NCBI GenBank assembly: GCA_964433975.1
Contig: CAYSSS010000001.1
Coordinates: forward strand, 78,257 to 142,256
Direction of reading: 5' to 3'
Length of the DNA stretch: 64,000 nucleotides
DNA from: an uncultured Planctomycetia bacterium
GTDB taxonomy: Bacteria > Omnitrophota > Gorgyraeia > 2-01-FULL-45-10
The notes below the pieces were generated by a model, which saw only the letters and a program-made list of their open reading frames with translations, was not told the origin of the DNA and ran no database searches. Position 1 is the stretch's first letter; the number at the start of each line of letters is the position of its first letter. The translations under genes and the position numbers were made by a program. Below, one piece after another: positions 148 to 63,141 of this stretch.

Positions 148-2043
148 TTGACTATCCCGGTGATAAAGGATATAATCTTCACGTTATACAATATGAAGAA
201 CATACTTAATAAGCTAAGAATACCTGTGATGGTGGGCATGGACCTGATGTTAGTGAATCTGTCTATGTTCCTGGCCTTTGCAATTAGATTTGACTGGCGA
301 TTTACCAACATCATTGCATCTCCCTGTCTGTATTTTATGCTGTGGGCGGTCATTATCAGGATTACGTTATTCGCCATCTTTGGGATATATCAATGGTCAT
401 TTCGCTATGCGAGCATAAGCGAAGCAACGAATGTATTAAAGTCCATAACAATAGGTAGCTTATTACTTATTGCGGTGGCATTTTTTACACAACTCATAGA
501 GATGAGCCGGTCAGTACTGCTAATTGATTATCTGACCTGTCTTTTCCTTATAGGCATATCAAGATTCTCTCCGAGGGCTTTGATTAAATTCACGCAACTA
601 AAATCCTATAATCTCAAAAGAGTTCTTATAGTAGGAGCCGGCGCATCAGGTGAAATGGTCGTTCGTGAGATGATAAGCGCGAAAAAAAGAACTTATCAAC
701 CGGTCGGTTTTATCGACGATAACCCGACTAAGCTGCATTCCCGCATACATGGGGTAAGGGTCTTAGGTAAGATAGAAGACATTAGAGATGTGATAGGCCG
801 CCATAATGTTTCGGAAGTGATCATTGCAGTCCCATCCGCAAGCGGTAATACGATAAGGGATATTGTGTCAAAATGCGCAAAGTCGGATGTAAAGATTAAG
901 ACCGTGCCGGAGCTCCACAAGATCTTAACCGGCGAGGTAACAATAAAACAGATAAGAGACGTAAGCCCGGAAGATCTTTTAGGCAGGGAAACTGTTAGTA
1001 TAAGCATGGAAGATGTAAGTGCTTTTATCAAGGATAAAGTTGTTCTGATAACGGGCGCCGCCGGCACTATAGGGTCAGAATTATCGAGGCAGGTATCAAA
1101 ATTTAACCCGAAGCAACTGATATCATACGATCTGAATGAAAATGACGTATATTTTTTAGAGATCGAGCTCAAGTCGAGCTATCCCTATCTGAAATTTAAT
1201 ACAGTGATAGGCGATATAAAAGATATAGGACTGTTAAAAAATACATTTTCCAAGTACAGGCCCCAAATAGTTTTCCATTCCGCGGCACATAAGCACGTGC
1301 CTCTTATGGAGGGAAATCCGGTCTCTGCCATCAAGAATAATGTTATAGGCACAAGGAATCTTATTTACGCTTCGGAGCACTATATGGTAGAGAGATTTGT
1401 CATGATATCTTCGGATAAAGCGGTAAATCCTACGAATGTAATGGGGGTTTCAAAACGTATAGCGGAAATGATGATACAATCGAAAGCAAAAACAGCCAGG
1501 ACAAAATTTATGGCGGTTAGATTTGGTAATGTTATTGGTTCCAGCGGGAGCGTCGTCCCTATATTCAAGCGACAGATTGAAAGAGGAGAGCCGGTAACTG
1601 TAACCCACCCTGAGGTCAAGAGGTTTTTTATGACCGCTAAAGAGGCCGTGCAGCTTGTCATGCAAGCGGGCGCTATCGGTAAGGAAGGTGAAATCCTTAT
1701 TCTCGATATGGGCGAGCAGATAAAGATACTGGACTTGGCCAAAAGTCTCATAACTTTATCCGGACTTGAGCCCGATAAGGATGTGGGAATTAAGTTTATC
1801 GGTTTAAGACCGGGTGAAAAGATGTATGAGGAAACACTGCTTGATGTAGAGCATGATAGGGCAACCAAACATGATAAGATCTATATTGCGCAGCCAAATA
1901 ATTTTGATCCGATTCAATTGCGGGAAGATATAAAAATACTGGAAAAATTGGCTAATTTAATGGCCGAGGCCAAGATAATAGATAAAATCAAAGAGATGGT
2001 CCCAACTTACAAACCGAATGGTAAATACAATGGCAGTAAATAG
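148..2043 (+). CDS. Membrane-anchored NDP-sugar 4,6-dehydratase of the PglF/CapD/WbpM family (polysaccharide biosynthesis protein).
   Basis: 631 aa. The N-terminus is hydrophobic with multiple TM helices. There are two Rossmann motifs, LIVGAGASGEMVV and VLITGAAGTIGSEL. The SSDKAVNPTNVMGVSKRIAE motif is typical of CapD-like dehydratases. The true start may lie downstream of 148, for example the Met at 208. Confidence 0.85.
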   Translation: MTIPVIKDIIFTLYNMKNILNKLRIPVMVGMDLMLVNLSMFLAFAIRFDWRFTNIIASPCLYFMLWAVIIRITLFAIFGIYQWSFRYASISEATNVLKSITIGSLLLIAVAFFTQLIEMSRSVLLIDYLTCLFLIGISRFSPRALIKFTQLKSYNLKRVLIVGAGASGEMVVREMISAKKRTYQPVGFIDDNPTKLHSRIHGVRVLGKIEDIRDVIGRHNVSEVIIAVPSASGNTIRDIVSKCAKSDVKIKTVPELHKILTGEVTIKQIRDVSPEDLLGRETVSISMEDVSAFIKDKVVLITGAAGTIGSELSRQVSKFNPKQLISYDLNENDVYFLEIELKSSYPYLKFNTVIGDIKDIGLLKNTFSKYRPQIVFHSAAHKHVPLMEGNPVSAIKNNVIGTRNLIYASEHYMVERFVMISSDKAVNPTNVMGVSKRIAEMMIQSKAKTARTKFMAVRFGNVIGSSGSVVPIFKRQIERGEPVTVTHPEVKRFFMTAKEAVQLVMQAGAIGKEGEILILDMGEQIKILDLAKSLITLSGLEPDKDVGIKFIGLRPGEKMYEETLLDVEHDRATKHDKIYIAQPNNFDPIQLREDIKILEKLANLMAEAKIIDKIKEMVPTYKPNGKYNGSK

Positions 2044-3373
2044 GGAATGGCTTGATAGGCTGATAGTGCTGTCTTTATGCAGTATGATATTTACTCTGCC
2101 GTTTTCAAAATCAGCGGTGGAGATATGCATAATAACCGCTTTTGTGTTATGGATTTTAAAAAGATCGTTATCGTACGACCCAAAGGTCCCCCTTATACGA
2201 ATATTTAAACCGCCCAGTTCAAAATTAAATCTTCCAATATATTTATTTATTTTTGCCGGATTTTTATCGGTCGTCGCTAGCGCCTCAGTTTCGCTAAGCC
2301 TTAAAGGTATATTTTCCAAGCTGCTCAAAGAGGTGATTTTGTATTTTTTGGTGATAGAAACTATAAATAATAGAAAAAGACTGCACTTTGTTTTAATATT
2401 CATGGTACTGTCCATGCTACTTATAGGCGCGGACGGGATCTTTCAGTTCAGTACATACCGGGATTTTTTAAGGGGTTATCTGCAGGAAGGGAGGATTACG
2501 GCTTCTTTCAATACCGCCAATGGCCTAGGCGGTTGGATCACAGTTATGTTGCCGTTGGCTCTTGGCATGATCTTTACAGGAAAAGCTCCACGGCCGAAGC
2601 AGGCCTTTAAGTTTATACTATTTTTTTTATCGTGTGTTTTGTTGTTTTGTCTAGTGATGACTCGCTCGAGGGGAGCATGGGTGGGATCAGCTTTTGCCAT
2701 GATTTTTTTCATTGTATGTAAAAAAAACAGAGTATTTTTTATCGGGATGGCTATCATGTCGGTGCTGTGTATTTTTTTTCTTGCGTACTTGGTATGTGCA
2801 CATCCGGGGTTTACCGAGTTGCTCAGAGAATCTGTGAGCTTCAGCGCAAATGACGGCCATTTATCTTTTGTTAGAGATTTTTTTATCTCAGTCAAAAATT
2901 ACGCAGTCCAGATCATGCTAAAAACAGATATCGTAAGGACCCATTTATGGCGGGAGGCGCTATCGGTCATTAAAGACTTTCCTGTTTTTGGATGCGGCTT
3001 AAATACGTATTCTATTGTTGCCCCTGGTTACAAAGGTGATATTGGAGGAGAGGCCGGATTTTATCCGCACAACTCTTATCTTCAAATGGCTGCTGAAACT
3101 GGAATTGTTGGGTTGGCTTCTTTTCTTATTGTTGTGATAAGCTTATTCAGGGTCTCTATTAAGAATCTACAGAAGATCAAAGAAGCGTTTTACAACAGCA
3201 TATTGATCGGGTTATTGGCCGGATTATTCGGTTTTTTGGTGCATAGTTTTTTTGATGTTAATTTATACGCCTTGCAATTAGTTAATTTAATGTGGTTTGT
3301 CATGGGGTTGATTATTGCTGTTCAGAGAATAGCATTGAAGGAAGAAAGTAAGTCGTTAGGATATAATGCCTAA
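2018..3373 (+). CDS. O-antigen ligase / Wzy_C-domain polytopic membrane protein (WaaL or PglL-type O-oligosaccharyltransferase-like).
   Basis: 451 aa with many TM segments. The loop motif YPHNSYLQMAAETGIVGL matches the Wzy_C signature (H-N-x-Y-L-x-x-x-x-E-x-G). The start is ambiguous between 2018 and 2030. Confidence 0.7.
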   Translation: MVNTMAVNREWLDRLIVLSLCSMIFTLPFSKSAVEICIITAFVLWILKRSLSYDPKVPLIRIFKPPSSKLNLPIYLFIFAGFLSVVASASVSLSLKGIFSKLLKEVILYFLVIETINNRKRLHFVLIFMVLSMLLIGADGIFQFSTYRDFLRGYLQEGRITASFNTANGLGGWITVMLPLALGMIFTGKAPRPKQAFKFILFFLSCVLLFCLVMTRSRGAWVGSAFAMIFFIVCKKNRVFFIGMAIMSVLCIFFLAYLVCAHPGFTELLRESVSFSANDGHLSFVRDFFISVKNYAVQIMLKTDIVRTHLWREALSVIKDFPVFGCGLNTYSIVAPGYKGDIGGEAGFYPHNSYLQMAAETGIVGLASFLIVVISLFRVSIKNLQKIKEAFYNSILIGLLAGLFGFLVHSFFDVNLYALQLVNLMWFVMGLIIAVQRIALKEESKSLGYNA

Positions 3374-4178
3374 AAACAGAAAACCTCAATCGTTAAAACT
3401 TGGTTGTTTAAAGGATCCCCGTGATTTACGTGACATTCCAATGGGGCTGGTCCTGCCTCCGATACCGCTACCCGATAAAACCGATTATACGGTCAGCATG
3501 ACCCCTGTTAGAAATCAGGGCAATGAAGGAACGTGCGTGGCGTTTGCAAGTGTTGTAGGTATAAAAGAGTATCAGGATTCCAGAGAGTATAAGAAGATTA
3601 TAGATTTATCGCCGCGGTATAACTATAGCCTGTGCAAGAAAAATGACGGCAGCCCCGAAGAAGAGGGCACATATCCCAGGGTCGCAATGAAGATGCTGCT
3701 GAGCTTCGGTACGCCTCCCGAGAGATATTGGCCGTATAAGCCCCATCAAATTGATAAACCGAAACACGGTGCCGATAAGGCAGCAATGAAGTATCGCATA
3801 AAAGCCTACGCTCGTATCAAAACTAACCTTGAAATGAAACGAAGCCTGGTTATCAATGGTCCGTTCATGGCGGGCGTAGATGTGTACGAGTCGTGGTTTA
3901 CAGAGAAGGCCTCTAAAACCGGACTGATACCTATGCCTATAAAGTCCGACCAGTATCAGGGCGGTCATGCCATATGCATAGTCGGTTATGATGACAAAAG
4001 GAAGCTATTTAAATTCAAGAACTCTTGGGGTGATGATTGGGGAGATAGTGGATATGGTTATCTAACCTACGACTATATGAAACAATATTGCGTTGATGCC
4101 TGGAGCGCCACAGATTTAATTGAGAATCCGATGGCGCTGGTAAGTAAGATAGAAGAGGTTTTGGTACGGTATGCCTGA
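3366..4178 (+). CDS. Papain-like cysteine peptidase (family C1A-like), with no obvious signal peptide.
   Basis: The catalytic motifs are Q-x5-C (QGNEGTCVAFA), His (GGHAICIVGYDD) and Asn (NSWGDDWGDSGYGY). All three are spaced as in papain. Length is 270 aa. Confidence 0.8.
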   Translation: MPKNRKPQSLKLGCLKDPRDLRDIPMGLVLPPIPLPDKTDYTVSMTPVRNQGNEGTCVAFASVVGIKEYQDSREYKKIIDLSPRYNYSLCKKNDGSPEEEGTYPRVAMKMLLSFGTPPERYWPYKPHQIDKPKHGADKAAMKYRIKAYARIKTNLEMKRSLVINGPFMAGVDVYESWFTEKASKTGLIPMPIKSDQYQGGHAICIVGYDDKRKLFKFKNSWGDDWGDSGYGYLTYDYMKQYCVDAWSATDLIENPMALVSKIEEVLVRYA

Positions 4179-5765
4179 TTATATTCTGGGAATATCGGCG
4201 TTCTATAATGATTCCGCCGCCGCGCTGCTTAAAGACGGCGAGATAATAGCTGCGGCCCAGGAAGAACGCTTTACGCGTAAAAAGCACGACCCAAGTTTTC
4301 CCAAAAATGCAATATCATATTGCTTGCGCGAAGCAGGTATCGGCAAGGCAGATCTTGATCTAATGGTATTTCATGATGGCAGCTATAAAAAAGACGTAAA
4401 AAAAAACTAAAATTTCGCGGCAAGCAGCTATTTTGCAAACATCACTACGCTCAGGCGGCAAGCGCTTTTTATCCGTCCCCATTCAATAAAGCCGCGATAC
4501 TTGTAGTTGATGGATCAAATGCTCAGGTAGCGGCAGCTTTTGGCAGTGGCACAGACAATTCAATAAAAATTCACTCCTCTATAAAATTCCCGAATTCCAT
4601 AGGGTTGCTATATTCCGTATTTACGCATTATTGCGGATTCAATCCCGATGCTGATGAGTATAAGTTAATGGGGTTGGCTCCTTATGGCAAGCCGGTTTAT
4701 GTTGACCTGATTATGGAGAAGCTTATTAAGCTGAGAATCGACGGTACTTATCGTATAAATTCGAATTACTTTACTTTCCGGGCGAAGCATAAAAAATCCA
4801 ATAAGAAGTTCACAGATCTCTTCGGCGGCCCCCCAAGAAAAAAAGATGACGAGATAGAAAAAAAACATAAGGACCTCGCGCGTTCTGTCCAAGCCGTCAC
4901 GGAGATTGCTTTGATGAACATGGTGAATCGCTTGTACGGGAAAACAAGGCTGGAAAACCTTTGTATGTCAGGTGAAGTGGCGCATAATTGCGTTGCGAAT
5001 GGTAGAATATTAAGGGAAGGGCCTTTTAAGAGGGTGTGGATACAGCCAGCGCCTTCCAGCGCTGGGTGCGCTCTCGGGGCAGCATTTTTAGGTTGGCATG
5101 AATACATGGGCAAGCTCCGAAAAGTCAGCAGGGCCAGAGATTTGCAGAAAGCGAGCCTTCTGGGCCCATCGTTCTCCGATGAAGAAATAGAAAGCTATTT
5201 AGAAGAAAATAATATAAAATATCAAAAATTGGCGAGAGCGGCCCTTTTAGCAAAAGTTGCCGGTTTTCTGGCTGACCAAAGAATAGTTGGGTGGTTCCAG
5301 GGCAGGATGGAGTTCGGCCCCCGCGCTCTGGGGAACCGTAGTATTCTGGCGGATCCCAGGTCAAAAGATATGCGCGATATTATTAATTCAAAAATCAAAT
5401 TCAGGGAAAGTTTCAGGCCATTTGCGCCAAGCGTGCTTCTGGAAAAATCACGGAACTTCTTTGATCTGGAATACGAAAGCCCATACATGCTTTTTGTGTC
5501 AACGGTTAAAAGGAGCGGATTTCCGGCCATAACACATGTTGACGGCTCAGCTAGGGTGCAAACAGTAAAGCATGAAGACAACCCTCTTTTTTATGATTTA
5601 ATAGGGCAGTTTTATAAAGACCACGGTTGCCCCATGGTTATAAATACATCTTTTAACAGGATGGGGGAGCCGATAGTCTGCACGCCTGAGGATGCTTACG
5701 GATGTTTTATGAATACCGAAATGGATTATTTAGTTATGGGTTCATTTATTATTGGAAAGGTTTAG
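4171..5765 (+). pseudogene. NodU/CmcH-family carbamoyltransferase split by a frameshift at an A9 homopolymer (4398-4406). It is either a phase-variable or inactivated gene, or a homopolymer sequencing error.
   Basis: ORF 4171-4410 encodes the family N-terminus (MPDYILGISAFYNDSAAALLKDGEIIAAAQEERFTRKKHD..DLDLMVFHDGS). The adjacent frame continues without a gap with LKFRGKQLFCKHHYAQAASAFYPSPFNKAAILVVDGS..EYKLMGLAPYGKP..., running into the annotated ORF 4605-5765, which carries the C-terminal NodU motifs (GRMEFGPRALGNRSIL, NTSFN). A single +1 change (A10) in the A-run would restore one ~530 aa ORF. Confidence 0.6.
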
Positions 5766-7491
5766 TATGAGAACAATAGAAAAAATTGTTGTCGCAGTAT
5801 TGCTTCTATCATTTCTAATAGGCGGATTATATTATGCCGCCACGAATTCCATAACGTCCGATGAAAAAACGCATATGGCGGTAGGGTATATGAACCTGCG
5901 CTTTCATGATTACAGGTTCAATATCGAGCATCCGCCTCTCGTTAAACAGCTCGCTGCGCTGCCGCTTTTATTCCTGAAGCTGAATTTTCCTTTTGATGTT
6001 TACAGCGTATCGGTCCCGGACGATATCGTAAAGATCCAGAACTTATTCCTGTTCAAGCTCGGGAACAACCTCGATTTTATGCTCTTTCTCTCCCGCATAC
6101 CGAATCTACTCATAGCCCTTATTTTAGGGTTCTTCATATACCTGTACTCAAGAAGGCTCAACGGCACATTCGCCGGGCTGATCTCATTGTCGTTATTCGT
6201 ATTCTCACCCATATTCTTAGCCCACTCCTCTTTGGTCACCATGGATACTACTATAACCTGCTTCTATTTCGCGGCTATCTATTTTTTGATGAGGTATTTT
6301 GAAACGGAAAAAGAGGGATTTTTGATCGGTGTGGCGCTCTTTACGGGATTAAGCTTTATGTCGAAGTTCAGCGGCCTGCTTTTGATACCGGTAATTTATT
6401 TACTTATTTTCATGAGGAGTTTATACCCGGTCCAGGAACCGAAAAAAATTACTTTGAAGAAGTGGATAGTAAACCTGGTCATATTTTTGCCTTTTCTGTT
6501 ATTTGCCGCATCTTATAAGAAGTCTTTCAGACTAATACTTCCGGCCCTCGCCATATACGCCATCTCTTATCTCTTTTATAACAAGAAGACTCTCTTCTCA
6601 AAGATAAATTTTGTAGGTAGGTCGCTACTCTTCATCATGGTAGTGGCGTTTGTCATGGTAATACTTGATTATACCGACTATTCATGGTTCCCGTTTCATA
6701 GCGCTACAAAGGCTTATTTCAAAGGCTTTGCCTATTTTGAGGGTCACGCGCAATATGGGCAGGAGTCTTATCTATTGGGGGCCAGCTCAAAGGCAACGGG
6801 GTGGTGGTATTATTTTCCTCTCGCTATTTTATTCAAGGAGCCATTTATTACCTCAATATTCCTCTTCCTGGGGGTAATAGGGTTATGCATAAAAAGAGAG
6901 AAGATATTAACTAAAGCCGTTCTTGTGATACCGGCTTTCGTATATCTTTTTATAGCGATGTTCATCAACAATTTGAACATAGGCATCCGCCATATATTGC
7001 CGGTATATCCGTTTTTGTTTGTCATGGCCGGTTACAGCGTATCCATTATAAGAAACTCCAGGGCGGTTAAATATCTTTTATCTCTGTTGGTCATAATATT
7101 AGCCGTGGATGTGCTAAGTTCGTATCCTGCCCATCTTTCGTATTTTAACAGACTGATAGGGGGGTATAAAGATGGTTATAAGTACCTTGGTGATTCAAAT
7201 ATAGCCTGGGGTCAGGACTGGAAGAGGTTAAAAGGATACGTTGAAAAGCATAATATAGCCACAATAGGTGCGGACGGAGCTTTCAGCTATGATAAAGTGT
7301 GCGATTATTATCGTATACCGTATAGGTATCTAACGAAAGATGAAGAATTGCGTCCGAGGGAAGGATATTATGTTATCGAGACTACCGCTTTCCCGGCCAA
7401 AAGAATAAAATGGCTGGATAAGATAAAGCCTGTTGAATGGGTGGGAGGATCCTTGCTGATATATAATATTACAAAGGAAGATGCCAAATGA
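5752..7491 (+). CDS. GT-C fold membrane glycosyltransferase, ArnT/PMT_2-like (polyprenyl-phosphate-sugar dependent).
   Basis: 579 aa polytopic. The first periplasmic loop has a D-E motif (ITSDEKTH) followed by HPPL (EHPPLVKQLAALPL), as in ArnT/PMT-family enzymes. It is a paralog of the 19538-21205 protein, sharing the C-terminal motif YFN..IGG...GYKYL.DSN..WGQD. Confidence 0.65.
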   Translation: MERFSMRTIEKIVVAVLLLSFLIGGLYYAATNSITSDEKTHMAVGYMNLRFHDYRFNIEHPPLVKQLAALPLLFLKLNFPFDVYSVSVPDDIVKIQNLFLFKLGNNLDFMLFLSRIPNLLIALILGFFIYLYSRRLNGTFAGLISLSLFVFSPIFLAHSSLVTMDTTITCFYFAAIYFLMRYFETEKEGFLIGVALFTGLSFMSKFSGLLLIPVIYLLIFMRSLYPVQEPKKITLKKWIVNLVIFLPFLLFAASYKKSFRLILPALAIYAISYLFYNKKTLFSKINFVGRSLLFIMVVAFVMVILDYTDYSWFPFHSATKAYFKGFAYFEGHAQYGQESYLLGASSKATGWWYYFPLAILFKEPFITSIFLFLGVIGLCIKREKILTKAVLVIPAFVYLFIAMFINNLNIGIRHILPVYPFLFVMAGYSVSIIRNSRAVKYLLSLLVIILAVDVLSSYPAHLSYFNRLIGGYKDGYKYLGDSNIAWGQDWKRLKGYVEKHNIATIGADGAFSYDKVCDYYRIPYRYLTKDEELRPREGYYVIETTAFPAKRIKWLDKIKPVEWVGGSLLIYNITKEDAK

Positions 7492-8795
7492 AGGTTTGTC
7501 TCATACATCCGCCGCAGCCCAATTCACTGGACGATAGGCTCGATATCCCGCTTGGGCAGCTATATCTGGCCACCGTGCTAAAGGAAGCGGGCTACGAAAC
7601 CAGGGTAGTTGACCTCTCTTCCGTGCCAATGGAGCGTTGGGCCGACCTCATCGGATGGGCGGATGTCTACGGCTTCACGGTGTATACTCCGTCGTATTAT
7701 ATATGCAAAGAGATACTGAAGCTTGCCAAGCAGAATAACCCCCGCGCCATAAGCGTCGCCGGAGGCGCGCATCCATCCGCTCTTCCGGAAGAGACTTTAA
7801 AAGATTTTGATTATGTAGTTATCGGCGAGGGGGAATTTGCCATGCGTGATCTAGTCGATAACTTAGCGAAGGCCAGGCCGATGGAGTCCAGGATCATCAG
7901 GTATCCTCTCATCGCGAATTTAGATGAACTGCCATATCCAGACCTTGACTTGATCGACATACATTCATACCATAGAAAGGTGGATGGTCAGCCGAGCTTG
8001 AGCTTTGTTACGAGCCGGGGGTGCCCCAATACGTGTGCGTTCTGCTGTAACTTCATGTTCGGCAAAAAGATCAGGTTCAGGCACCTTGATAACGTTGTCA
8101 ACGAGTTATCGTCGATAAAATCGAAATATGGCGTGAGGAATTTTATTTTTTATGACGATACGATGACCCTGGACAAAAACCGGGTTAAAGAGATGTCTGA
8201 GAAGTTTAAGCGGCTTGACATACGTTTCCGGGCTAATGGCACAGTAAAGGTGAATGATCCGGAAGTTTATGAGGATCTTTACGTCGCGGGCTGCAGGAAT
8301 ATCGCGTTTGGCGTTGAGACCGGCTCTCAGGAATTACTGCGCAAGATGAAGAAGCACACAACGGTAGACCAGATAAAAAAAGCTGTTAAAAACGCCAAGG
8401 CCGCCGGATTAATAGTTAAAGTATTCCTCATAGTCGGCTTTCCCGGAGAGACCTATCAGACCATACAGGAGACCGCCGATCTGATGCTTGAGTGCCGGCC
8501 GAACCAATATACGCTCTTTAACTTCGTCCCGTTTCCCGGCTGTGATGTTTGGCACAATCCCAAGAATTACGGCGTTACCTATTTTGAAAAGAACTACGAG
8601 CAGTACTTCAACATAGCCGGGTACCAGGAGGGAGGGCTCACGGTAGATACGGAGACTATGAAGAGGGCCGATGTCAAAGATATGAGGGAAAAACTGCTCG
8701 AATCCCTGTGCCGGTTAGACTGGTCCGGTGACGTACAGAATTACCAGTATAAGCTGCAACCTAAATACACCCCCCACACCCGCCAGTCCCCATAA
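7488..8795 (+). CDS. B12-binding-domain radical SAM enzyme (class B radical SAM, candidate C-methyltransferase).
   Basis: The N-terminus MKVCLIHPPQP...LATVLKEAGYE is typical of the cobalamin-binding domain. The CxxxCxxC cluster is at TSRGCPNTCAFCC. Length is 435 aa. Confidence 0.8.
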   Translation: MKVCLIHPPQPNSLDDRLDIPLGQLYLATVLKEAGYETRVVDLSSVPMERWADLIGWADVYGFTVYTPSYYICKEILKLAKQNNPRAISVAGGAHPSALPEETLKDFDYVVIGEGEFAMRDLVDNLAKARPMESRIIRYPLIANLDELPYPDLDLIDIHSYHRKVDGQPSLSFVTSRGCPNTCAFCCNFMFGKKIRFRHLDNVVNELSSIKSKYGVRNFIFYDDTMTLDKNRVKEMSEKFKRLDIRFRANGTVKVNDPEVYEDLYVAGCRNIAFGVETGSQELLRKMKKHTTVDQIKKAVKNAKAAGLIVKVFLIVGFPGETYQTIQETADLMLECRPNQYTLFNFVPFPGCDVWHNPKNYGVTYFEKNYEQYFNIAGYQEGGLTVDTETMKRADVKDMREKLLESLCRLDWSGDVQNYQYKLQPKYTPHTRQSP

Positions 8796-26757: not shown

Positions 26758-26760
26758 CAG

Positions 26761-26789: not shown

Positions 26790-26812
26790 AAGTCAAAAAG
26801 AAAGGTGTGATC

Positions 26813-29132: not shown

Positions 29133-29134
29133 AG

Positions 29135-57312: not shown

Positions 57313-58923
57313 ATGGACGAACTCGTCAATATACAGGTTGGCCTATTAGGCAGGTCGTTTGAGATCTCTTCTATGCTCAAACAAGAGGGCGTTCCGTATT
57401 TTGAGCACGACCCCAGGGTGTCCGGTAGCCTGGATGGCATCGGGTCTATGCTTATCATAGACAAGGTGACCGGCCGCGATACTGAGTTATTGAAAGTCTA
57501 TCTGCGCAAAAAGGGCGCGATCATATGCGATGTTCTGAACAAGGAGTTAATATCCGCTCTTTGCGCTAAAAGGCTGGATCGCGGCGATAACGCACATGAT
57601 GAGTGCATCGAGCTTTACGAATCAGGGGGCGGCCATGTTATATATGTAAGCAAATATCTGCGTAGGTCGGCCGGGGACAGGAACGCTGTCGTTAAAGAGT
57701 TTTACACATCAGCCGGGATAGTAAGGGAAAGAGTGGCGTTGTTTCCCGGGTATAGAGACAGGGATATTCTGTCGCGCGCTCTGATGATGTCGTTTCACGT
57801 GCGTGGCCTGCCATTCGTCAGGCTATGGTATTATCCCAAAAGCTGCAAGTCCGTCTTTAATTTTCGGTTTGATCTGGACGAAGATACCGGCAATGACCTG
57901 GAACATATAGCGGAGGCCTCGAAAGAATTCAAAGATTGCACGACGTGGTTTGTCTCATGCGCGTCTTTCGAAAAGAATGCTCACAAAATAAAGAGGCTGA
58001 TCGATGACGGGTTTGATGTGCAATCGCATGGCTACTACCATCACACTTACGGTGACAGAAGTCAGAATGAATTAAATATAAGAAAATCGATAGATTATAT
58101 TGCCGGCCTTAGCGGGTTGGTCGAGGGCTTTGCCGCGCCCATGGGAAGATGGAACGAAGGCCTTCAGCTTGTACTGGAAAGGCTTGGGCTTCTATATAGT
58201 TCCGAGTTCTCGCTCGATTACGATGATTTGCCGTTTTATCCTGTATTGCATGGCAGGCCTTCAAGTGTATTGCAGATACCCATCCACCCTATATGCTGGG
58301 GCATTTATAAGGATGCCGGAATAGGGGATGACAATGCCATAAAAGAATACATGCAGAAAGTCATAATTAACAAACATTATGCCCGGTTGCCAGTGCTTAT
58401 TTACGGGCATCCGAGCGAAAGTATAGGCAAGAACCCTGCTTTGTTAAAGGCGATATATAAAACAGCCGGTTCTCTGTCAGATGTAAGTCGGGTGAGGTTG
58501 TCCGATCTGGCGAAATGGTGGCGCAACAGAGATAAGGTAAGATTTAAGGACGTTGTATTCAATGCCTCTAAAAAGACAATCAGCTATGCTATCAAAGGGG
58601 GCACCCATATTTCAGATCTTTGTCTCAATATACAGATAAAACCGGATAAAGTATCCTATCATAGTATTGCCGGGCCTTGCGGTGAAATATGTCTGGACGG
58701 GCTTAAATATGAAGAGATACGCAATCTCAAGGCGGATCCGGACCTGTATAGAGAGGCTGTCTGTAAGAAAAGTCGGCTGAAGAGGCTGAAAGAAGGCGTC
58801 GTTGCCATGCTCGACTGGGAAGAGTGCACACCATTAGGCGAAATAAAAAGAAATTCAATAGCGTCTAATCTAAAGTATGTGCTTAGAAGATGCGGTTTTG
58901 ATAAAGTAAAATTAAACGTCTAG
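57313..58923 (+). CDS. Polysaccharide deacetylase-like (NodB/CE4 homology) protein with N- and C-terminal extensions.
   Basis: NodB-like motifs: FRFDLDED (as TFDDG), SHGYYHH (as H-S/T-x-x-H) and AAPMGRW (as R-P-P-x-G). Confidence 0.55.
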   Translation: MDELVNIQVGLLGRSFEISSMLKQEGVPYFEHDPRVSGSLDGIGSMLIIDKVTGRDTELLKVYLRKKGAIICDVLNKELISALCAKRLDRGDNAHDECIELYESGGGHVIYVSKYLRRSAGDRNAVVKEFYTSAGIVRERVALFPGYRDRDILSRALMMSFHVRGLPFVRLWYYPKSCKSVFNFRFDLDEDTGNDLEHIAEASKEFKDCTTWFVSCASFEKNAHKIKRLIDDGFDVQSHGYYHHTYGDRSQNELNIRKSIDYIAGLSGLVEGFAAPMGRWNEGLQLVLERLGLLYSSEFSLDYDDLPFYPVLHGRPSSVLQIPIHPICWGIYKDAGIGDDNAIKEYMQKVIINKHYARLPVLIYGHPSESIGKNPALLKAIYKTAGSLSDVSRVRLSDLAKWWRNRDKVRFKDVVFNASKKTISYAIKGGTHISDLCLNIQIKPDKVSYHSIAGPCGEICLDGLKYEEIRNLKADPDLYREAVCKKSRLKRLKEGVVAMLDWEECTPLGEIKRNSIASNLKYVLRRCGFDKVKLNV

Positions 58924-58940: not shown

Positions 58941-60839
58941 ATGAAAGAGATTGCCGATAAATTTATCGCGTTGGCCGCGAACAAAAAAAAGAACGAAGAA
59001 GCGAGGTCGTTTTTTTTGAAAGAGATAGAAGGCGAATATAATCCGCTTCTATGGAAATGTTATATATCCCATATGACAGAAAAAAGGGATAGATTTAAAA
59101 AGAAGGAGCGAATAGCTCTTCTCGGCTCATCCAACATAACGCCCGTAAAGAACATGTTGCGGTCGGTTTTTGACGCGAATAAGATCTCGACAGATTACTT
59201 CGTAGGGGAATATGGCAATTATCTTCAGGAGCTGATGCTGGATGGGTCGAAGCTCTATTCGTTTAATCCCACGATGACGATCATCCTGCTTAGCCTTCCA
59301 GATATCATGCCGTCAGTTTATGAATATCCCTTTTCGCATAACAAGAAGAGCGTTGACGATCTGCTGGCGAAGCTGTCCCGGGACTTGAGGACGGCTCTGG
59401 GCAAATATTCTTCCGCTCTTGCGAAGAACACCACTTATGTGGCCATTGTCCCATCTTATGAGGAGCCGTGCAACTACGTCTACTCTCCCGGGAGTTCGTT
59501 CAAAAGCGATAACTACTTAATGAAACTGCAGGATGCCGTTGAAAGTCTGGAGAAAGAAAAGAATAACATTGTGATGATGAATGGCAGAAGATGCGTCAGC
59601 AAGCATCCGGCCCGCAGGATCGAGGACAAGCGATACTGGTACCTTGGGAGGATCCGCTATACGGACCTATTCTTCTCTGAGGTCGCCAAAGAACTCATGG
59701 GGCTCTACAGGATCATCAATACGCCCTCAAAAAAATGTTTAATACTGGACCTCGATAATACACTGTGGGGGGGAGTGATAGGACAAGACGGCTTTGAGAA
59801 TATAGAGCTTGGCCAGGATGGCATCGGCAGGGCATATCAGGACTTTCAAAGAGAGGCCTTAAAATTGCACAAAAAAGGGATTATACTCGCGATCTGCAGT
59901 AAAAATAACGAATCGGACGCTATGGAATTCTTTAAAACGCACACGGAGATGATACTGAAGCCGGAGCATTTCGCGGCAAAGCGGATAAACTGGAGTGACA
60001 AGGCCTCCAACATAAAAGATATCGCCAGGGAGATCAATATCGGGCTGGACTCCGTGGTCTTTTTTGACGATGATCCGGCGGAGAGAAAGTGGGTGAGGGA
60101 TAGCCTGCCGCAGGTCACCGTTCCGGAGCCACCGCAGGATCAATTTTTATACGCTGAATTTCTAAAAAACTCCGAATGGTTTAAGTCCTATAAGCTTAGC
60201 GAGGAGGACCTTTCCAGAAATATTACTTATGAAGCTATTGCCAGAACGAAAGGCCTGAAAAGTTCCTCGAGTAACGAAGGCGCCTTCTTAAAGAGCCTCG
60301 CTCAATCCTTGACAATTGAACGTGTTGATGCGTCAACGGTTTCGAGAGCCGTTCAGCTTTGCCAAAAGACGAACCAATTTAACCTGACCACCAGGAGATA
60401 TCAGTTGGCGGATATTAAGGATGTTATGTCTTACAAACTTAATCATGTCTATACGATAAGGGCCAAAGACTGTTTTTGTGACTACGGTATCGTCGGCGTC
60501 TTGATCCTGAAGGGGCAGGCCTCAGACAGGTCTCTAACGATAGACACGTTTCTATTGAGCTGCAGGATCATAGGGAGAAAGATAGAGAACGTTCTATTGG
60601 ACTGGGTTAAGAGCAAGGCCAAGGCCGAAGGATACGCCAGGTTATACGGCGTATATTCAAAAACAGAAAAAAATGCCGTTTGCGCAAATATCTATAAGGA
60701 CAGCGGCTTCACTGTCGTCTACAGGCGCGGTAGAGATATTAAATACGAATGCTCCCTTGATAAAAGATTGGGGCTTTATCCGTTTGGGAAATTCGTCAAA
60801 GTAGAACTGAAGAAGAGTAGAGATGGAAAAAAAACTTAA
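58941..60839 (+). CDS. FkbH-like HAD-superfamily (subfamily IIIC) phosphatase / acyl-ACP-forming enzyme.
   Basis: LILDLDNTLWGGVIGQDG (the DxDxT HAD motif I) and ...VFFDDDPAE (motif IV). A C-terminal domain is present. It is immediately followed by an ACP gene. Confidence 0.75.
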   Translation: MKEIADKFIALAANKKKNEEARSFFLKEIEGEYNPLLWKCYISHMTEKRDRFKKKERIALLGSSNITPVKNMLRSVFDANKISTDYFVGEYGNYLQELMLDGSKLYSFNPTMTIILLSLPDIMPSVYEYPFSHNKKSVDDLLAKLSRDLRTALGKYSSALAKNTTYVAIVPSYEEPCNYVYSPGSSFKSDNYLMKLQDAVESLEKEKNNIVMMNGRRCVSKHPARRIEDKRYWYLGRIRYTDLFFSEVAKELMGLYRIINTPSKKCLILDLDNTLWGGVIGQDGFENIELGQDGIGRAYQDFQREALKLHKKGIILAICSKNNESDAMEFFKTHTEMILKPEHFAAKRINWSDKASNIKDIAREINIGLDSVVFFDDDPAERKWVRDSLPQVTVPEPPQDQFLYAEFLKNSEWFKSYKLSEEDLSRNITYEAIARTKGLKSSSSNEGAFLKSLAQSLTIERVDASTVSRAVQLCQKTNQFNLTTRRYQLADIKDVMSYKLNHVYTIRAKDCFCDYGIVGVLILKGQASDRSLTIDTFLLSCRIIGRKIENVLLDWVKSKAKAEGYARLYGVYSKTEKNAVCANIYKDSGFTVVYRRGRDIKYECSLDKRLGLYPFGKFVKVELKKSRDGKKT

Positions 60840-61062
60840 ATTTCTGATAGCGAACTGCTGCCAGATAGAGCCATCGGATGTGGGAGACGATGCCGGTGTA
60901 AATGCCACACCTAACTGGGATTCTTTCGGGCACCTTCAGATAATGGTATGTGTCGAGCAGGAGTTTGGCGTCGTATTGGATACAAAGACCATAGCGCAGC
61001 TGACATCGTATAAAGATATTATCAGATACTTGAAAGCGACCAGGAAGAAGAATGGAAAGTAG
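60823..61062 (+). CDS. Acyl carrier protein.
   Basis: 79 aa. The phosphopantetheine attachment motif is WDSFGHLQIMV (DS). Confidence 0.75.
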   Translation: MEKKLKFLIANCCQIEPSDVGDDAGVNATPNWDSFGHLQIMVCVEQEFGVVLDTKTIAQLTSYKDIIRYLKATRKKNGK

Positions 61063-62176
61063 TGTAAGGATTCGTGGTTATGAGGCGCAGGACAAAGGCG
61101 CGGTATTCTCCCTTCTGTCCTCGTTTTACGCCAACATGGATAGCGAGGCAAGCTGGGAGCGCCTTTATATGGACAATCCATCCGGCAGGGCAATAATATC
61201 CGTAGTTCAAGAGCCGCTTAAAAAAAATATAATCGGCCACTATTCCGTGATAAAAATGCCAATGACCGTATTTGGCAAAGAACGCATGGGGGGTAAAGGG
61301 GAAGGAGAGATAGTCGACTTTTCCGTAGTTAAGCAGCTGCTGCGCGACAGAAGCATACCGAATCGCTCTTTTTCCGCGGAGTTATTGAGTCACACCGTTA
61401 TGGAGTCGCTCAATGAAGGACTGAAGCTTATATGTACAAATCCCAGCAACTTGGCCCTTAAATCACATCTGGAGGCGGGATTTAAGGCCATCAAGCAAAG
61501 ATTCGACATATTCATATTCGTATTAAGCGCGAAATATTTTGCGCATCTACTGTCAGAAAAGTCCCGGTTAAAAGTTCTTAGCGCCGCAGCAGGTTTTGCT
61601 TTATGCGCAATATATAAATTATTCCACGCGATCACTATCCTGTATTACAGAGACAGTTCTATATCTCTTGAGCCATTCGAATCATTTGGCGATGTGACGG
61701 ATGAGCTGTACGAAAAGTTTTCCAGGAGCTATACGTTCATAGCTATAGAAAGAAAGCGCGCCCATCTGAACTGGAGGTTTGGCGCGAATGAGTACAGCAA
61801 ATTCATAATAAAGATCGGTGAAGAAGCGGTCGGCTACATGGTCCTGCATATATTTGTAAATCCTAACGGCTTTAAAGAAGCTAATATCGTGGACTATATC
61901 CTGCTGCCGCGATCCTGGGGCAAGTTCGCGGCGATCGTCGTGGAGGCGCTGAGAATCGCGAGGAAAAACAGCTGCGATTTTATAAGATTAAATTATATGT
62001 ACGACATGAAAGAAAAGTTTATGCTTTCAAAGCTTATAAAGAAGCTTCGTTTTATCGGCCGGGAAGATAAGAGAAATATCGTCGTATTCTTATCACCGGA
62101 GCTTAAGCAATTGGAAGCGAAGATTCTGGATGTGGATAATTGGTATTTTACGGACCTGTATTTTGAGAACTACTGA
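61052..62176 (+). CDS. Putative acyltransferase (GNAT / FemAB-like fold).
   Basis: 374 aa with no TM helices. Its position after the FkbH-like and ACP genes suggests an acyl-transfer role. I did not identify a definitive motif. Confidence 0.3.
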   Translation: MESSVRIRGYEAQDKGAVFSLLSSFYANMDSEASWERLYMDNPSGRAIISVVQEPLKKNIIGHYSVIKMPMTVFGKERMGGKGEGEIVDFSVVKQLLRDRSIPNRSFSAELLSHTVMESLNEGLKLICTNPSNLALKSHLEAGFKAIKQRFDIFIFVLSAKYFAHLLSEKSRLKVLSAAAGFALCAIYKLFHAITILYYRDSSISLEPFESFGDVTDELYEKFSRSYTFIAIERKRAHLNWRFGANEYSKFIIKIGEEAVGYMVLHIFVNPNGFKEANIVDYILLPRSWGKFAAIVVEALRIARKNSCDFIRLNYMYDMKEKFMLSKLIKKLRFIGREDKRNIVVFLSPELKQLEAKILDVDNWYFTDLYFENY

Positions 62177-62178
62177 AA

Positions 62179-63141
62179 ATGGATAAGAAAAAAGTAAATA
62201 TAATAGTATTGAATTATAACGGGAGGCAGCTTCTCGAAAAATATATACCGTCGATCATCGAGGCAGGGAGACACTCCGATCATCTTTGCAGGGTTTCGGT
62301 GGTAGATAATAAAAGCACGGACGGCAGCGCAGAGTTTCTAAAAGCAAATTATAATGGCCTCGATGTTTATGAGGCCAAAGAAAACAGGGTGCTGTGTTCG
62401 CAGAACGACTATCTCTCTTCCATCGATGACGATATTGTTATATTTCTTAATAATGACATCAGGGTTGACCGCAATTTTGTAGATCCTTTAATTGGCCATT
62501 TTCATGACGAGAACCTGCTATTCGTAGCTCCAAAAGAACTGAGCCCGGAAGGTAAATATCAGGGAAATCTTAATAAGCTGTCATTCAGGCTCGGGCTTAT
62601 TTCTACCTCGGTCATGAGAGAAGGACGGGATAGCGTACAATATGACAGCTCGATAGGGGGCGGCGCGTTTGACAGAAAAAAGCTCGTGTATTTAGGCGGT
62701 TTTGACGATCTGTACCTACCCGGAATATTTGAGGACCTGGATGTGTGCTATCGAGGCTGGAAGCATGACTGGAAAGGGATATACGAGCCGGCAAGTTTTT
62801 ATTACCACGAGCAGGGGACAAGCTTCAGGGCAAAATACGGCGACGAGGGAAAGGCGATACTTGCCCACAGAAACGCATTCTTGTTTTTCTGGAAAAATGT
62901 GACGTCCAAGAGGATGCTTTTTATCCACATAATGTTTATACCTGTTTTATTGGCATGGAATCTTTTGAGGGGCAGAACGCTTTTTATAAAGGGTTTTTTT
63001 CAGGCGCTTGACAAATTAGGAATAGCTATAAATAAAAGGGCTTCGGTAAAAAAACAATTTCGCATCACGGATGAAGAGGTGTTACGAAGGCCGCGGATGC
63101 CGTATCAGATCATTACTGATCCGCCGCATACGAGCATCTGA
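62179..63141 (+). CDS. GT2-family glycosyltransferase (GT-A fold).
   Basis: VNIIVLNYNGRQLLEKYIPSI...VVDNKSTDGS...DDDIVIFLNNDIRVD (DxD). Confidence 0.8.
   Translation: MDKKKVNIIVLNYNGRQLLEKYIPSIIEAGRHSDHLCRVSVVDNKSTDGSAEFLKANYNGLDVYEAKENRVLCSQNDYLSSIDDDIVIFLNNDIRVDRNFVDPLIGHFHDENLLFVAPKELSPEGKYQGNLNKLSFRLGLISTSVMREGRDSVQYDSSIGGGAFDRKKLVYLGGFDDLYLPGIFEDLDVCYRGWKHDWKGIYEPASFYYHEQGTSFRAKYGDEGKAILAHRNAFLFFWKNVTSKRMLFIHIMFIPVLLAWNLLRGRTLFIKGFFQALDKLGIAINKRASVKKQFRITDEEVLRRPRMPYQIITDPPHTSI

Follow-up and report, generated by a model that had tools for sequence, protein, structure and literature searches.

Does an unbroken, co-directional run of 55 genes rich in glycan enzymes build one surface sugar or several, and by which chemistry? 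The question is raised by a 64,000-nucleotide stretch of DNA from an uncultured Omnitrophota bacterium (GenBank assembly GCA_964433975.1, contig CAYSSS010000001.1, positions 78,257 to 142,256 of the forward strand), here called the window. Most likely, the window represents one uninterrupted segment of an Omnitrophota chromosome and holds a cell-envelope glycan super-locus of several modules, probably serving more than one product. The most interesting content consists of a pair of genes encoding an RtcB-family protein and a kinase-like protein, and of a conserved run of nine adenines (A9), a putative recoding site in a carbamoyltransferase gene; neither was noticed in a first-pass annotation of the same DNA.

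The frame of the locus consists of a small PglC-type phosphoglycosyltransferase (PGT), a PglF-type dehydratase, a Wzy_C protein of the WaaL fold, a papain-like peptidase and the carbamoyltransferase. A variable 20-kb cassette contains six membrane glycosyltransferases of the C type (GT-Cs) interleaved with three family 2 glycosyltransferases (GT2s) resembling dolichyl-phosphate mannose synthase (DPMS), together with three B12-binding radical S-adenosylmethionine enzymes (B12-rSAMs) and a gene set for a GDP-6-deoxy-4-amino-hexose. The nonulosonate block combines a legionaminic-type pathway, amidination of the WbuX/Y/Z type, CMP activation and Wzx, while the ulosonate block is a KdsB-linked pathway arranged around an HpcH aldolase. 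The last module carries an ArnC-like GT2, two family 4 glycosyltransferases (GT4s), RtcB-like, dTMP-kinase-like and flippase-like proteins, a GT-C, a GT2 and a deacetylase, and is joined here to an FkbH/acyl carrier protein (ACP) set. Domain calls come from Pfam, NCBIfam and PDB searches of the window proteins (Table 1); such searches, named in advance as a check on the first-pass annotation, upheld nearly all of its module assignments. Loci read for comparison are denoted by L numbers.

Organization of the locus

A six-frame listing of open reading frames (ORFs), combined with junction arithmetic, gives an unbroken series of 56 plus-strand ORFs over 148-63141, with a coding density of 99%; three small genes under the 100-aa ORF cutoff (4171-4410, 26807-27052 and 60823-61062) were added. 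Thirty-two of the 55 junctions overlap, 11 measure 0-10 bp, eight 11-35 bp and one 73 bp, while the remaining three (194, 231, and 267 bp) are longer than 100 bp. As the 194-bp junction is internal to one frameshifted gene, the series amounts to 55 genes with exactly two true gaps longer than 200 bp (231 and 267 bp). The first-pass annotation had described a translationally coupled run of about 56 genes with only two such gaps, and this description stands, except that one gap claimed as intergenic (426 bp) is in fact the frameshifted carbamoyltransferase gene. Chance orientation cannot explain 55 successive co-oriented genes. GC skew is positive across the whole window, and co-directional glycan operons are the rule in related Omnitrophota loci (all called genes lie on one strand in L005-L008, L026, and L028). 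The only long minus-strand ORF with a domain match, a convergent short-chain dehydrogenase/reductase (SDR) gene, terminates the run. Scans of the window for tRNAs and Rfam families gave no match.

On the same contig 3' of the window (L002, 12269-20963), plus-strand glycan genes resume past the SDR-MaoC gene and encode an epimerase, a hexapeptide acetyltransferase, an Epimerase_2 protein, GT4s, a GT9 heptosyltransferase-type protein and a WbaP-like PGT. This downstream cluster implies chemistry resembling that of the lipopolysaccharide (LPS) core and a second initiation point, and brings the total glycan region to more than 80 kb.

Within the run, the zone at 21-27 kb unites the lowest GC of the window (minimum 0.38 at 22-26 kb), both true gaps and promoter-like sites, including an 11/12 sigma-70-like match (26761-26789) just 5' of the HTH_17 gene. 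Comparison of 21230-27060 with the 90%-identical relatives L010 and L011 shows the genes for the 683-aa rSAM, the FkbM protein and the HTH_17 protein to be present, absent or reordered. The zone is a variable joint and probably an operon boundary.

The gene order around the frame recurs in other Omnitrophota. L026 has a PGT (186 aa), PglF (80% identical), Wzy_C (60%) and Peptidase_C1 (79%), followed by some 8 kb of other sugar genes, two further B12-rSAMs among them, and then the same carbamoyltransferase. In L028, PglF, Wzy_C, Peptidase_C1 and the carbamoyltransferase precede a series of the form PMT_2-GT2-...-PMT_2-GT2-GNAT-PMT_2; L027, with a Wzy_C protein 40% identical, reads PGT-Wzy_C-cupin-ADH-PMT_2, with an rSAM-SPASM protein and a B12-rSAM upstream. 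As these orthologous loci share frame genes, GT-C/GT2 arrays and several B12-rSAMs, the composition looks typical of the lineage, not peculiar to one locus, and the uniqueness implied by the first-pass annotation does not hold. To judge by gene order, a conserved frame with a variable cassette of GT-C/GT2 and cobalamin-rSAM genes is the classic anatomy of a surface-antigen locus, built with a lineage-specific enzyme set. The locus is a variant of known surface-glycan systems, typical of its lineage though very large, most of its parts being of known kinds. The main genomic survey of the Omnitrophota (PMC10066038) leaves LPS, glycosylation and envelope glycans unmentioned, and a 2026 preprint goes no further than naming LPS/capsule glycosyltransferases as part of what hypervariable regions carry; a literature search on Omnitrophota glycans found nothing relevant.

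The unbroken co-orientation, the overlapping junctions, the high coding density and the finding of no terminator-like site in the region scanned could all be taken to mean that the window is one operon for one elaborate glycan, with all 55 genes acting on the same repeat unit. Such a reading is nevertheless unlikely. In L005-L008, L022 and L023, the block from the ArnC-like GT2 to the deacetylase, with the RtcB pair, is found again, but the ~20 kb of surrounding sequence that was read has no PGT/Wzy_C frame genes; the gene content at 21-27 kb varies between 90%-identical strains, in the zone of the gaps and promoter-like sites; and in L026 the frame genes are separated by another set of genes. 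The right-hand ~14 kb is a module that stands alone in other genomes, so that at least two products are expected.

Integrity of the assembly

A composite locus of this size in a metagenome assembly, with a GC dip at 22-26 kb, might be suspected to consist of several organisms' glycan loci joined through conserved genes. This is extremely improbable. The window proteins are found, identical in sequence, on ENA contig k141_168704 (295,816 bp) and on independent Logan contigs, which agree at both ends. A metagenome-assembled genome (MAG) from Rifle, L004, keeps the same gene order for 12 kb; this stretch begins with the GT4 at 51560, includes the GT2 at 62179 and ends with the minus-strand SDR, and its proteins are 68-83% identical. 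L010 and L011, from two other metagenomes, span the junction of the rSAM/GT2 block to the legionaminic (Leg) block, including the low-GC joint, and L028 shows the same order of frame genes followed by GT-C/GT2 pairs. Each 8-kb segment correlates with the rest of the window at 0.91-0.965 in tetranucleotide composition. Chimerism, which had been named beforehand as a result that would overturn the first-pass annotation, is therefore rejected on the grounds of collinearity, bridging, Logan identity and uniform composition. As to the source, the named nearest homologues are nearly all from Omnitrophota/Omnitrophica MAGs.

The RtcB/kinase module

Database matches of the RtcB-family protein fall into three groups: tier 1, with about 50 clusters 39-100% identical; tier 2, at 30-34%; and canonical RtcB, at 25-29%. 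Eight tier-1 loci were read (the window, L004, L005, L006, L007, L008, L022, and L023); L004, L007 and L008 are labelled Omnitrophota, L005 Planctomycetia and L006 Patescibacteria, while L022 is an archaeal contig with genes for ribosomal protein L37e and an LSM protein. A dTMP-kinase-like gene follows RtcB in all eight, and GT4 genes lie 5' in seven; most also have an ArnC-like GT2, an LPG_synthase_TM flippase-like protein, a PMT_2 GT-C, a B12-rSAM and a deacetylase. Beside RtcB, L023 has a gene for a CDP-alcohol phosphatidyltransferase. Neither RtcA nor archease was found beside tier-1 RtcB in these eight loci. Because the context is kept in every one of them, the possibility that RtcB is a stray passenger gene is ruled out.

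Among 48 tier-1 sequences, the Cys, the three metal-binding His and the GMP-accepting His (the equivalents of C98, H203, H234, H329 and H404) do not vary, nor do the GTP-site residues. Near-invariant, clade-specific changes occur beside the metal ligands (D95->N, HTGSR->H[S/G]DSR, and xHN->NHD), with N70, D217 and N350-H-D352 as the tier-1 signature; D95, an Asp metal ligand in Pyrococcus horikoshii, is Asn in 47 of the 48. From this residue pattern, tier-1 RtcB looks like a catalytically competent, neofunctionalised enzyme. With the RNA ligase RtcB (P. horikoshii 1uc2/4dwq, E. coli, and human RTCB) it has in common the fold family, the GMP-accepting, metal-binding and GTP-site residues, and the Cys. 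It differs in its low identity (25-29%), in the altered metal-side residues and in its surroundings, where a dTMP-kinase-like partner within glycan modules takes the place of an RtcA/RtcR/archease context.

RtcB enzymes activate a phosphomonoester with GMP and then join it to a hydroxyl. Taken with the adjoining kinase, this chemistry suggests the formation of a phosphodiester in a glycan or glycolipid. It is tentatively proposed, as a possibility rather than an expectation, that the pair constitutes a new two-enzyme step of glycan or glycolipid assembly and the first role of the RtcB fold outside nucleic acids, in a module shared horizontally among ultrasmall lineages. The kinase would phosphorylate a sugar, a polyol or a lipid-linked intermediate; the RtcB-type enzyme would activate the phosphomonoester with GMP from GTP, giving a phosphodiester or cyclic phosphate. 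The lineages involved in the transfer would be Omnitrophota, Patescibacteria-labelled MAGs and an archaeal (possibly DPANN) contig. A literature search on RtcB in glycan loci returned nothing relevant, and plasmids of cultured organisms carry canonical RtcB only.

Two tier-2 RtcB loci (L024, 933-2315, and L025, 10001-11353) have no glycan context. Their RtcB genes adjoin DUF5666 and OEP outer-membrane factor genes and, in L024, MacB-type efflux genes, a recurring context unlike both RNA repair and the glycan module.

A conserved A9 site in the carbamoyltransferase gene

The NodU/CmcH-type carbamoyltransferase gene is split into a 79-aa N-fragment (4171-4410) and a downstream ORF in the -1 frame. 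One A added at the A9 run restores an intact ORF of 531 aa. A9 lies at the homologous codon in L026 (20332-20340) and in L028 (10228-10236)/L029, where the flanks have diverged while the downstream -1 ORF is intact. In the protein database, each of the 46 nearest N-fragment clusters reads [V/L]KKN at the site; 21 stop there and 25 run on out of frame. The run itself was seen in the DNA of three species and is deduced from [V/L]KKN for the 46 clusters. None of the best 120 matches, a list biased toward short proteins, is an in-frame product. The nearest 50%-cluster representative, in a library that cannot resolve closer relatives, is 59% identical, unsplit and without an A-run.

Since the same A9 occurs in three species, a random pseudogene and a homopolymer sequencing error are both ruled out. 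Sequence conservation suggests programmed slippage; the site could also be a conserved phase-variation tract caught in the OFF state. No Shine-Dalgarno-like element and no conserved downstream RNA structure was found at the frameshift site, which makes transcriptional slippage (A9 to A10) the preferred explanation, ahead of a stimulated -1 ribosomal frameshift. Apart from this site, the window contains a single A9 run, with an A8 run four bases further on (44091-44111), in frame within the KdsB-like gene.

Recoding at A-runs is known from the transcriptional slippage at A9 in Thermus dnaX and from -1 frameshifts at A_AAA_AAA/A_AAA_AAG in insertion sequence elements. The present site is similar in that A9 provides an A_AAA_AAA heptamer in the 0 frame with a downstream ORF in the -1 frame and is conserved across species. 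Unlike those cases, the host gene encodes a sugar carbamoyltransferase and the shift is needed for the sole functional product, not for a second isoform. Reporter data show about 40% shifting at a 9-A run, and poly(A) rescue occurs in endosymbionts, with carbamoyltransferase not among the clusters described (PMC3711429). No relevant literature on recoding of a carbamoyltransferase was found.

The WaaL-fold protein and its acceptor

The acceptor would depend on the Wzy_C-family protein. Its AlphaFold2 (AF2) model (pLDDT 89.9) has WaaL as the only significant Foldseek match (7tpg_B, E 1.4e-7, TM-scores 0.59/0.65); SEDS proteins come next, and no PglL structure is among the matches. At sequence level, the NCBIfam RfaL model scores 43 bits vs. 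a cutoff of 277, and the PglL_A domain gives no match even at E up to 5. There are more than 200 homologues at E <1e-10; the best 120 are 35-66% identical, and all named ones belong to Omnitrophota/Omnitrophica. The gene comes after PGT/PglF genes in every locus read. As such phylum-wide conservation (at 36-63% identity) would hardly be expected of a strain-specific Wzy polymerase, the protein fits a ligase or an oligosaccharyltransferase better. It is the only Wzy_C-family protein among the 56 ORFs, in which Pfam detects no Wzz. The priming set of the first-pass annotation is confirmed for the PglF-like and Wzy_C proteins; its PglC-like member is present only as a 42-aa stub, at 1-128, before the run begins. 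These 42 aa share 76% identity with the Bac_transf protein (186 aa) encoded 5' of PglF in L026.

The Wzy_C protein might instead be a PglL-type O-oligosaccharyltransferase that decorates pilins, S-layer or envelope proteins, some PMT_2 GT-Cs glycosylating proteins directly, as do actinobacterial Pmt/Ppm1. Priming genes of the N,N'-diacetylbacillosamine (diNAcBac) type (PglC-like PGT, PglF, aminotransferase, and NeuD/PglD acetyltransferase) are compatible with protein glycosylation as in the Neisseria and Campylobacter pgl systems; the Wzy_C gene directly follows PGT/PglF genes in three or four species, five GT-Cs have PMT_2/PMT matches, and type IV pili are near-universal in Omnitrophota (PMC10066038). 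A low probability is still assigned to this alternative, given the WaaL fold and the lack of PglL_A. Moreover, a glycosylated S-layer or pilin gene, for which the first-pass annotation had recommended a search, was found neither in the window nor in 17 kb downstream, and the GT9 heptosyltransferase-type gene, of the LPS-core type, lies about 10 kb downstream and is compatible with LPS. Between a ligase and an O-oligosaccharyltransferase, the reading with LPS or another lipid anchor is given no more than an edge.

The papain-like (C1) peptidase, whose gene has a start/stop overlap with the Wzy_C gene, retains the catalytic Q/C/H/N and occupies the same position in L026 (11295-12083) and L028 (9181-10008). 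In L026, its conservation exceeds that of Wzy_C.

GT-C, GT2 and radical SAM genes

The searches reproduced the seven GT-Cs (5752, 12099, 13505, 15642, 17360, 19538, and 55738), four B12-rSAMs (7488, 21230, 23525, and 41594) and four GT2s resembling polyprenyl-phosphate sugar synthases of the DPMS/GtrB/ArnC kind (9859, 14932, 22801, and 48791) counted in the first-pass annotation; where that had counted four or five methyltransferases, four were found (FkbM at 25808 and 43087, Methyltransf_11 at 47972 and 50857). All GT-Cs have 8-11 transmembrane segments (TM); five belong to PMT_2 and one to YfhO, these six above Pfam cutoffs, and one is a borderline GT87. Three of the GT2s measure 232-243 aa and one 315 aa. 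The best PDB relatives of those at 9859, 14932 and 48791 (Dol-P-Man synthase 5mlz, GtrB 5ekp, and ArnC) support the reading of the four as putative polyprenyl-phosphate sugar synthases. No two GT-Cs share more than 29% identity and the other paralogous pairs are at 33-43%, which argues for ancient paralogues, with no recent tandem amplification. The B12-rSAMs score far under all curated NCBIfam subfamily cutoffs. A set of B12-rSAM and FkbM genes occurs twice (21230-26539 and 41594-43824; rSAMs 35% and FkbMs 33% identical), once 5' of the Leg block and once between the HpcH aldolase and KdsB genes.

The abundance of divergent GT-Cs, one of them with a GT87-type match, and of polyprenyl-phosphate sugar synthase-like GT2s raises another alternative, in which the GT-C block polymerises: the GT4s would start a glycolipid inside the cell and the GT-Cs build a long outer chain from polyprenyl-phosphate monosaccharides, as for mycobacterial phosphatidylinositol mannosides, lipomannan and lipoarabinomannan (PIM/LM/LAM) and arabinogalactan. 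The order GT4-GT4-flippase-like-GT-C, the inositol monophosphatase (IMPase)-family gene and the phosphatidyltransferase gene beside RtcB in L023 are consistent with it. It is quite unlikely, though, as a complete set of Wzx, PGT and WaaL-fold protein is present, the GT87 match is under cutoff, no inositol-phosphate synthase or phosphatidylinositol synthase is encoded in the window, and the GT-C at 13505 resembles ArnT, a single-sugar modifier of lipid A.

Sugar-donor and tailoring blocks

Domain searches likewise reproduced the gene sets proposed earlier for a GDP-6-deoxy amino sugar, a legionaminic-type nonulosonate with amidination, a KdsB-linked ulosonate and FkbH/ACP acylation. The DegT-family enzyme is presumably the GDP-4-keto-6-deoxyhexose aminotransferase, judging from its position with the GDP-mannose 4,6-dehydratase. 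For the nonulosonate pathway, the UDP route could be provided in place of LegB by the PglF-type enzyme encoded at 148. The two soluble proteins that flank Wzx, after the CMP-nonulosonate synthetase, are candidate ulosonate transferases. The true start of the IMPase-family gene is probably further downstream than the GTG listed, and that of the PglF gene is probably ATG 193.

Proposed assembly

The preferred reading, a multi-module super-locus, would work as follows. PglF, an aminotransferase and an acetyltransferase would make a diNAcBac-type sugar, which the PGT would load onto undecaprenyl phosphate. Cytoplasmic glycosyltransferases would extend it with sugars from the GDP-, CMP- and UDP-donor pathways, Wzx would flip the lipid-linked unit, and the WaaL-fold protein would pass it to the final acceptor, most simply lipid A-core. 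Outer-face GT-Cs would then add sugars from the polyprenyl-phosphate sugars made by the short GT2s, following the "three-component" logic of the Gtr, Arn and YfhO systems. Tailoring would involve rSAM and S-adenosylmethionine (SAM) methylases, the carbamoyltransferase, the deacetylase and the FkbH/ACP acyl set. The carbamoyltransferase would be expressed only upon slippage at the conserved A9, and the RtcB/kinase pair would make a phosphodiester in the product of its module.

Several points weigh against this scheme. Its support is homology throughout. With neither Wzz nor a second Wzy-like protein present, polymerisation, if it occurs, has no enzyme assigned to it, and the one Wzy_C protein might be a ligase, an O-oligosaccharyltransferase or a polymerase. 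Candidates for cytoplasmic glycosyltransferases number just four to six, for four or more donor pathways. The six left-hand GT-Cs have no GtrA-like flippase beside them, and a window that is 99% coding leaves no space in which one could lie. The SDR at 27061 is not a recognisable LegB (54 bits vs. a cutoff of 475). With the rSAM scores so far under the curated subfamily cutoffs, "methylase" is a guess for these enzymes. Finally, the internal gaps and the promoter-like site at 25.6-27.0 kb, together with an RtcB module that stands alone elsewhere, mean that the 63 kb may comprise more than one operon or pathway.

Table 1. Genes and sites of the window in order of position. Bit scores are for the model or structure named; TM, transmembrane segments.
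Feature	Position	Strand	Evidence and remarks
C-terminal stub (42 aa) of small PglC-type PGT (Bac_transf)	1..128	+	cut by window edge
PglF/WbpM-type membrane UDP-HexNAc 4,6-dehydratase	148..2043	+	Polysacc_synt_2 380 bits + CoA_binding_3; 4 TM; 80% identical L026 orthologue
Wzy_C-family membrane protein, WaaL fold	2018..3373	+	Pfam Wzy_C 80.6 bits; NCBIfam matches all far under cutoff
Papain-like (C1) cysteine peptidase, no signal peptide	3366..4178	+	Peptidase_C1 81.7 bits; 79% identical in L026
NodU/CmcH-type carbamoyltransferase with one frameshift	4171..5765	+	Carbam_trans_N + Carbam_trans_C
A9 run, 0-frame G_UAA_AAA_AAA_AC	4398..4406	+	putative slippage/frameshift site
GT-C (PMT_2)	5752..7491	+	PMT_2 59 bits; 10 TM
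B12-rSAM	7488..8795	+	Radical_SAM + B12-binding; best NCBIfam HpnJ 145 bits, far under cutoff
GDP-mannose 4,6-dehydratase	8869..9843	+	GDP_Man_Dehyd 397 bits; TIGR01472 391 bits vs. cutoff 415
Short GT2, DPMS type, no TM	9859..10557	+	Glycos_transf_2; best PDB P. furiosus Dol-P-Man synthase 5mlz 121 bits
WbuC-family cupin	10575..10991	+	TIGR04366 42.4 bits vs. cutoff 42
DegT-family sugar aminotransferase	10988..12118	+	DegT_DnrJ_EryC1 409 bits
GT-C-like membrane protein	12099..13508	+	weak GT87 24.5 bits vs. cutoff 25; 10 TM
GT-C, ArnT-like	13505..14929	+	PMT_2 80 bits; PDB ArnT 5ezm 96.5 bits, E 1.4e-26
Short GT2, polyprenyl-phosphate sugar synthase-like	14932..15645	+	Glycos_transf_2; PDB DPMS 5mlz, GtrB 5ekp, ArnC
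GT-C (PMT_2/PMT)	15642..17363	+	9 TM
GT-C, YfhO family	17360..19534	+	Pfam YfhO 76.8 bits; 11 TM
GT-C (PMT_2/PMT)	19538..21205	+	29% identical to GT-C at 5752
B12-rSAM	21230..22804	+	90% identical orthologues just 5' of Leg genes in L010, L011
Short GT2, polyprenyl-phosphate sugar synthase-like	22801..23532	+	43% identical to GT2 at 14932
B12-rSAM, 683 aa	23525..25576	+	in L010, absent from L011
FkbM-family methyltransferase	25808..26539	+	Methyltransf_21 61.5 bits
Small HTH_17 DNA-binding protein	26807..27052	+	HTH_17 47 bits; in L010, absent from L011
Extended-SDR epimerase/dehydratase, first gene of nonulosonate block	27061..28044	+	Epimerase 121 bits
LegC-type aminotransferase	28041..29132	+	TIGR04181 411 bits vs. 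cutoff 420
NeuD/PglD-type N-acetyltransferase	29105..29731	+	TIGR03570 200 bits, cutoff 161
NeuB/LegI-type nonulosonate synthase	29731..30738	+	TIGR03569 496 bits, cutoff 400
NeuC/LegG-type hydrolysing 2-epimerase	30723..31913	+	TIGR03568 429 bits, cutoff 236
WbuZ(HisF-like)-HisH(WbuY-like) fusion, glutamine amidotransferase for acetamidino formation	31898..33217	+	TIGR03572 270 bits (cutoff 300); HisH 127 bits
WbuX N-acetyl sugar amidotransferase	33214..34371	+	TIGR03573 345 bits, cutoff 203
CBS-domain sugar-1-phosphate nucleotidyltransferase	34403..35509	+	NTP_transferase + CBS; presumed PtmE-like role
CMP-nonulosonate synthetase	35479..36231	+	CTP_transf_3; PseF model 177 bits vs. cutoff 206
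Soluble 615-aa protein	36228..38075	+	no Pfam/NCBIfam/PDB match; no TM
Wzx-type flippase	38072..39553	+	Polysacc_synt_3 + Polysacc_synt; 11 TM
Soluble 428-aa protein, possibly TagF-like	39550..40836	+	Glyphos_transf E 0.0027, under cutoff; single-sequence AF2 pLDDT 33.8
HpcH/HpaI class II pyruvate aldolase	40833..41594	+	Pfam 126.5 bits
B12-rSAM	41594..43090	+	35% identical to one at 21230
FkbM-family methyltransferase	43087..43824	+	33% identical to one at 25808
KdsB-type CMP-ulosonate synthetase	43829..44596	+	NF009905 298 bits, cutoff 255
GFO/IDH/MocA oxidoreductase	44583..45635	+	68% identical orthologue adjoins KdsB in L008
SIS-domain sugar-phosphate isomerase, GmhA-like	45659..46270	+	Pfam/NCBIfam
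D-2-hydroxyacid dehydrogenase	46278..47201	+	Pfam/NCBIfam
IMPase-family phosphatase	47138..47968	+	Inositol_P 161 bits; GTG start as listed, 64-nt overlap
Class I SAM methyltransferase	47972..48766	+	Methyltransf_11
ArnC/GtrB-like GT2, 2 C-terminal TM; first gene of RtcB module	48791..49738	+	PDB ArnC 9bhc over residues 3-294; 69-75% identical in L005-L008
GT4	49747..50853	+	syntenic in L005-L008, L022
Methyltransferase	50857..51543	+	Methyltransf_11; relatives have B12-rSAM in this position
GT4, overlaps RtcB start by 8 nt	51560..52684	+	Pfam; synteny
RtcB-family protein, tier-1 subfamily	52677..54179	+	Pfam RtcB 278 bits; under all four NCBIfam RtcB cutoffs
dTMP-kinase-like P-loop protein (GIDGSGKTT, DRY)	54181..54801	+	adjoins RtcB in 8/8 tier-1 loci
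LPG_synthase_TM/flippase-like membrane protein	54795..55745	+	Pfam 92 bits; TIGR00374 36.8 bits vs. cutoff 43.2
GT-C (PMT_2) of RtcB module	55738..57306	+	46-76% identical in L004-L008
Polysaccharide deacetylase-domain protein	57313..58923	+	Polysacc_deac_1 32 bits
FkbH-domain protein, glyceryl-ACP-forming type	58941..60839	+	TIGR01686 288 bits, cutoff 147
Acyl carrier protein-like, DSF motif	60823..61062	+	PP-binding 17.9 bits, E 0.004, under cutoff
GNAT-like protein, weak; candidate acyltransferase	61052..62176	+	Acetyltransf_1 19.8 bits vs. cutoff 20.7
GT2	62179..63141	+	homologues come after GT-C in L005-L008
SDR part of 413-aa SDR-MaoC protein	63105..63983	-	boundary, outside glycan set

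Comparison with known systems

The O-antigen of Legionella pneumophila serogroup 1 is 5-acetamidino-legionaminic acid, and the K loci of Acinetobacter baumannii, with an ItrA-type PGT, provide units that feed both the capsule and PglL O-glycosylation. Like such Wzx-dependent nonulosonate O-antigen and capsule loci, the window has a small PGT, a PglF/WbpM-type dehydratase, Wzx and a Wzy_C-family protein, as well as the NeuB/NeuC/NeuD/aminotransferase/CMP-synthetase set with WbuX/Y/Z-type amidination. Unlike them, it has no Wzz and no separate Wzy, and it is three to four times larger; the seven GT-Cs, the four B12-rSAMs, the RtcB-family gene and the papain-like peptidase have no known counterpart there. 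The three-component systems (GtrA/GtrB/GtrC, ArnC/ArnE-F/ArnT, and CsbB/GtcA/YfhO) are matched in that DPMS/GtrB/ArnC-like GT2s adjoin PMT_2, ArnT-like and YfhO GT-Cs. Whereas the known systems are single triads, up to seven GT-Cs and four synthases stand here in one run with no GtrA-type flippase; the LPG_synthase_TM-type protein at 54795 is the sole flippase candidate, in one complete triad.

The rfb locus for Leptospira LPS is a very long, co-directional O-antigen locus and resembles the window in its tens of tightly packed LPS/glycan genes on one strand, including those for nonulosonate synthesis, but it belongs to an unrelated phylum and has a different gene set. To our knowledge, neither the density of GT-C and rSAM genes nor an RtcB module has been reported for it. 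In mycobacterial PIM/LM/LAM synthesis, PimA and PimB are GT4s, Ppm1 is a GT2, and PimE and MptA are GT-Cs. The sequence of two GT4 steps inside, a flip, and a GT-C outside acting on a polyprenyl-phosphate sugar fits the module at 48.8-57.3 kb, a likeness of logic and not of sequence orthology. Genes for inositol-lipid synthesis are absent from the window, and the RtcB/kinase pair is not known from mycobacterial loci.

Hopanoid side-chain genes encode HpnI (a GT2), HpnJ (a B12-rSAM), HpnK (a deacetylase) and HpnL (of the LPG_synthase_TM family). The same four families occur in the conserved module of the relatives L005-L008, and HpnJ is the best curated model for two window rSAMs. The resemblance to the hopanoid set ends there, with an HpnJ score of 145 bits vs. 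a cutoff of 578 and no hopanoid genes present. This parallel (7488-8795, 41594-43090, 54795-55745, and 57313-58923) hints at non-methylating rSAM chemistry, for example ring contraction of an amino sugar.

Biological significance

Omnitrophota are bacteria of wide distribution that have not been cultured; most are ultrasmall, and they may depend on hosts. Surface sugars are the first contact for a host, a predator or a phage. At least 63 kb, and more than 80 kb with the downstream cluster, is invested here in surface glycan chemistry. This chemistry leans heavily on outer-face glycosylation by GT-Cs and on cobalamin-dependent radical enzymes. Should the RtcB/kinase pair act on a glycan or lipid, RNA-repair chemistry would gain a new class of substrates, and the pair would offer a way to phosphodiester links that is independent of nucleotide sugars. 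The conserved A9 site adds a clean example of either recoding or an ON/OFF switch that acts on a gene for surface modification in bacteria with reduced genomes; if the former is true, the carbamoyltransferase gene would extend programmed A9 slippage to a new, conserved example.

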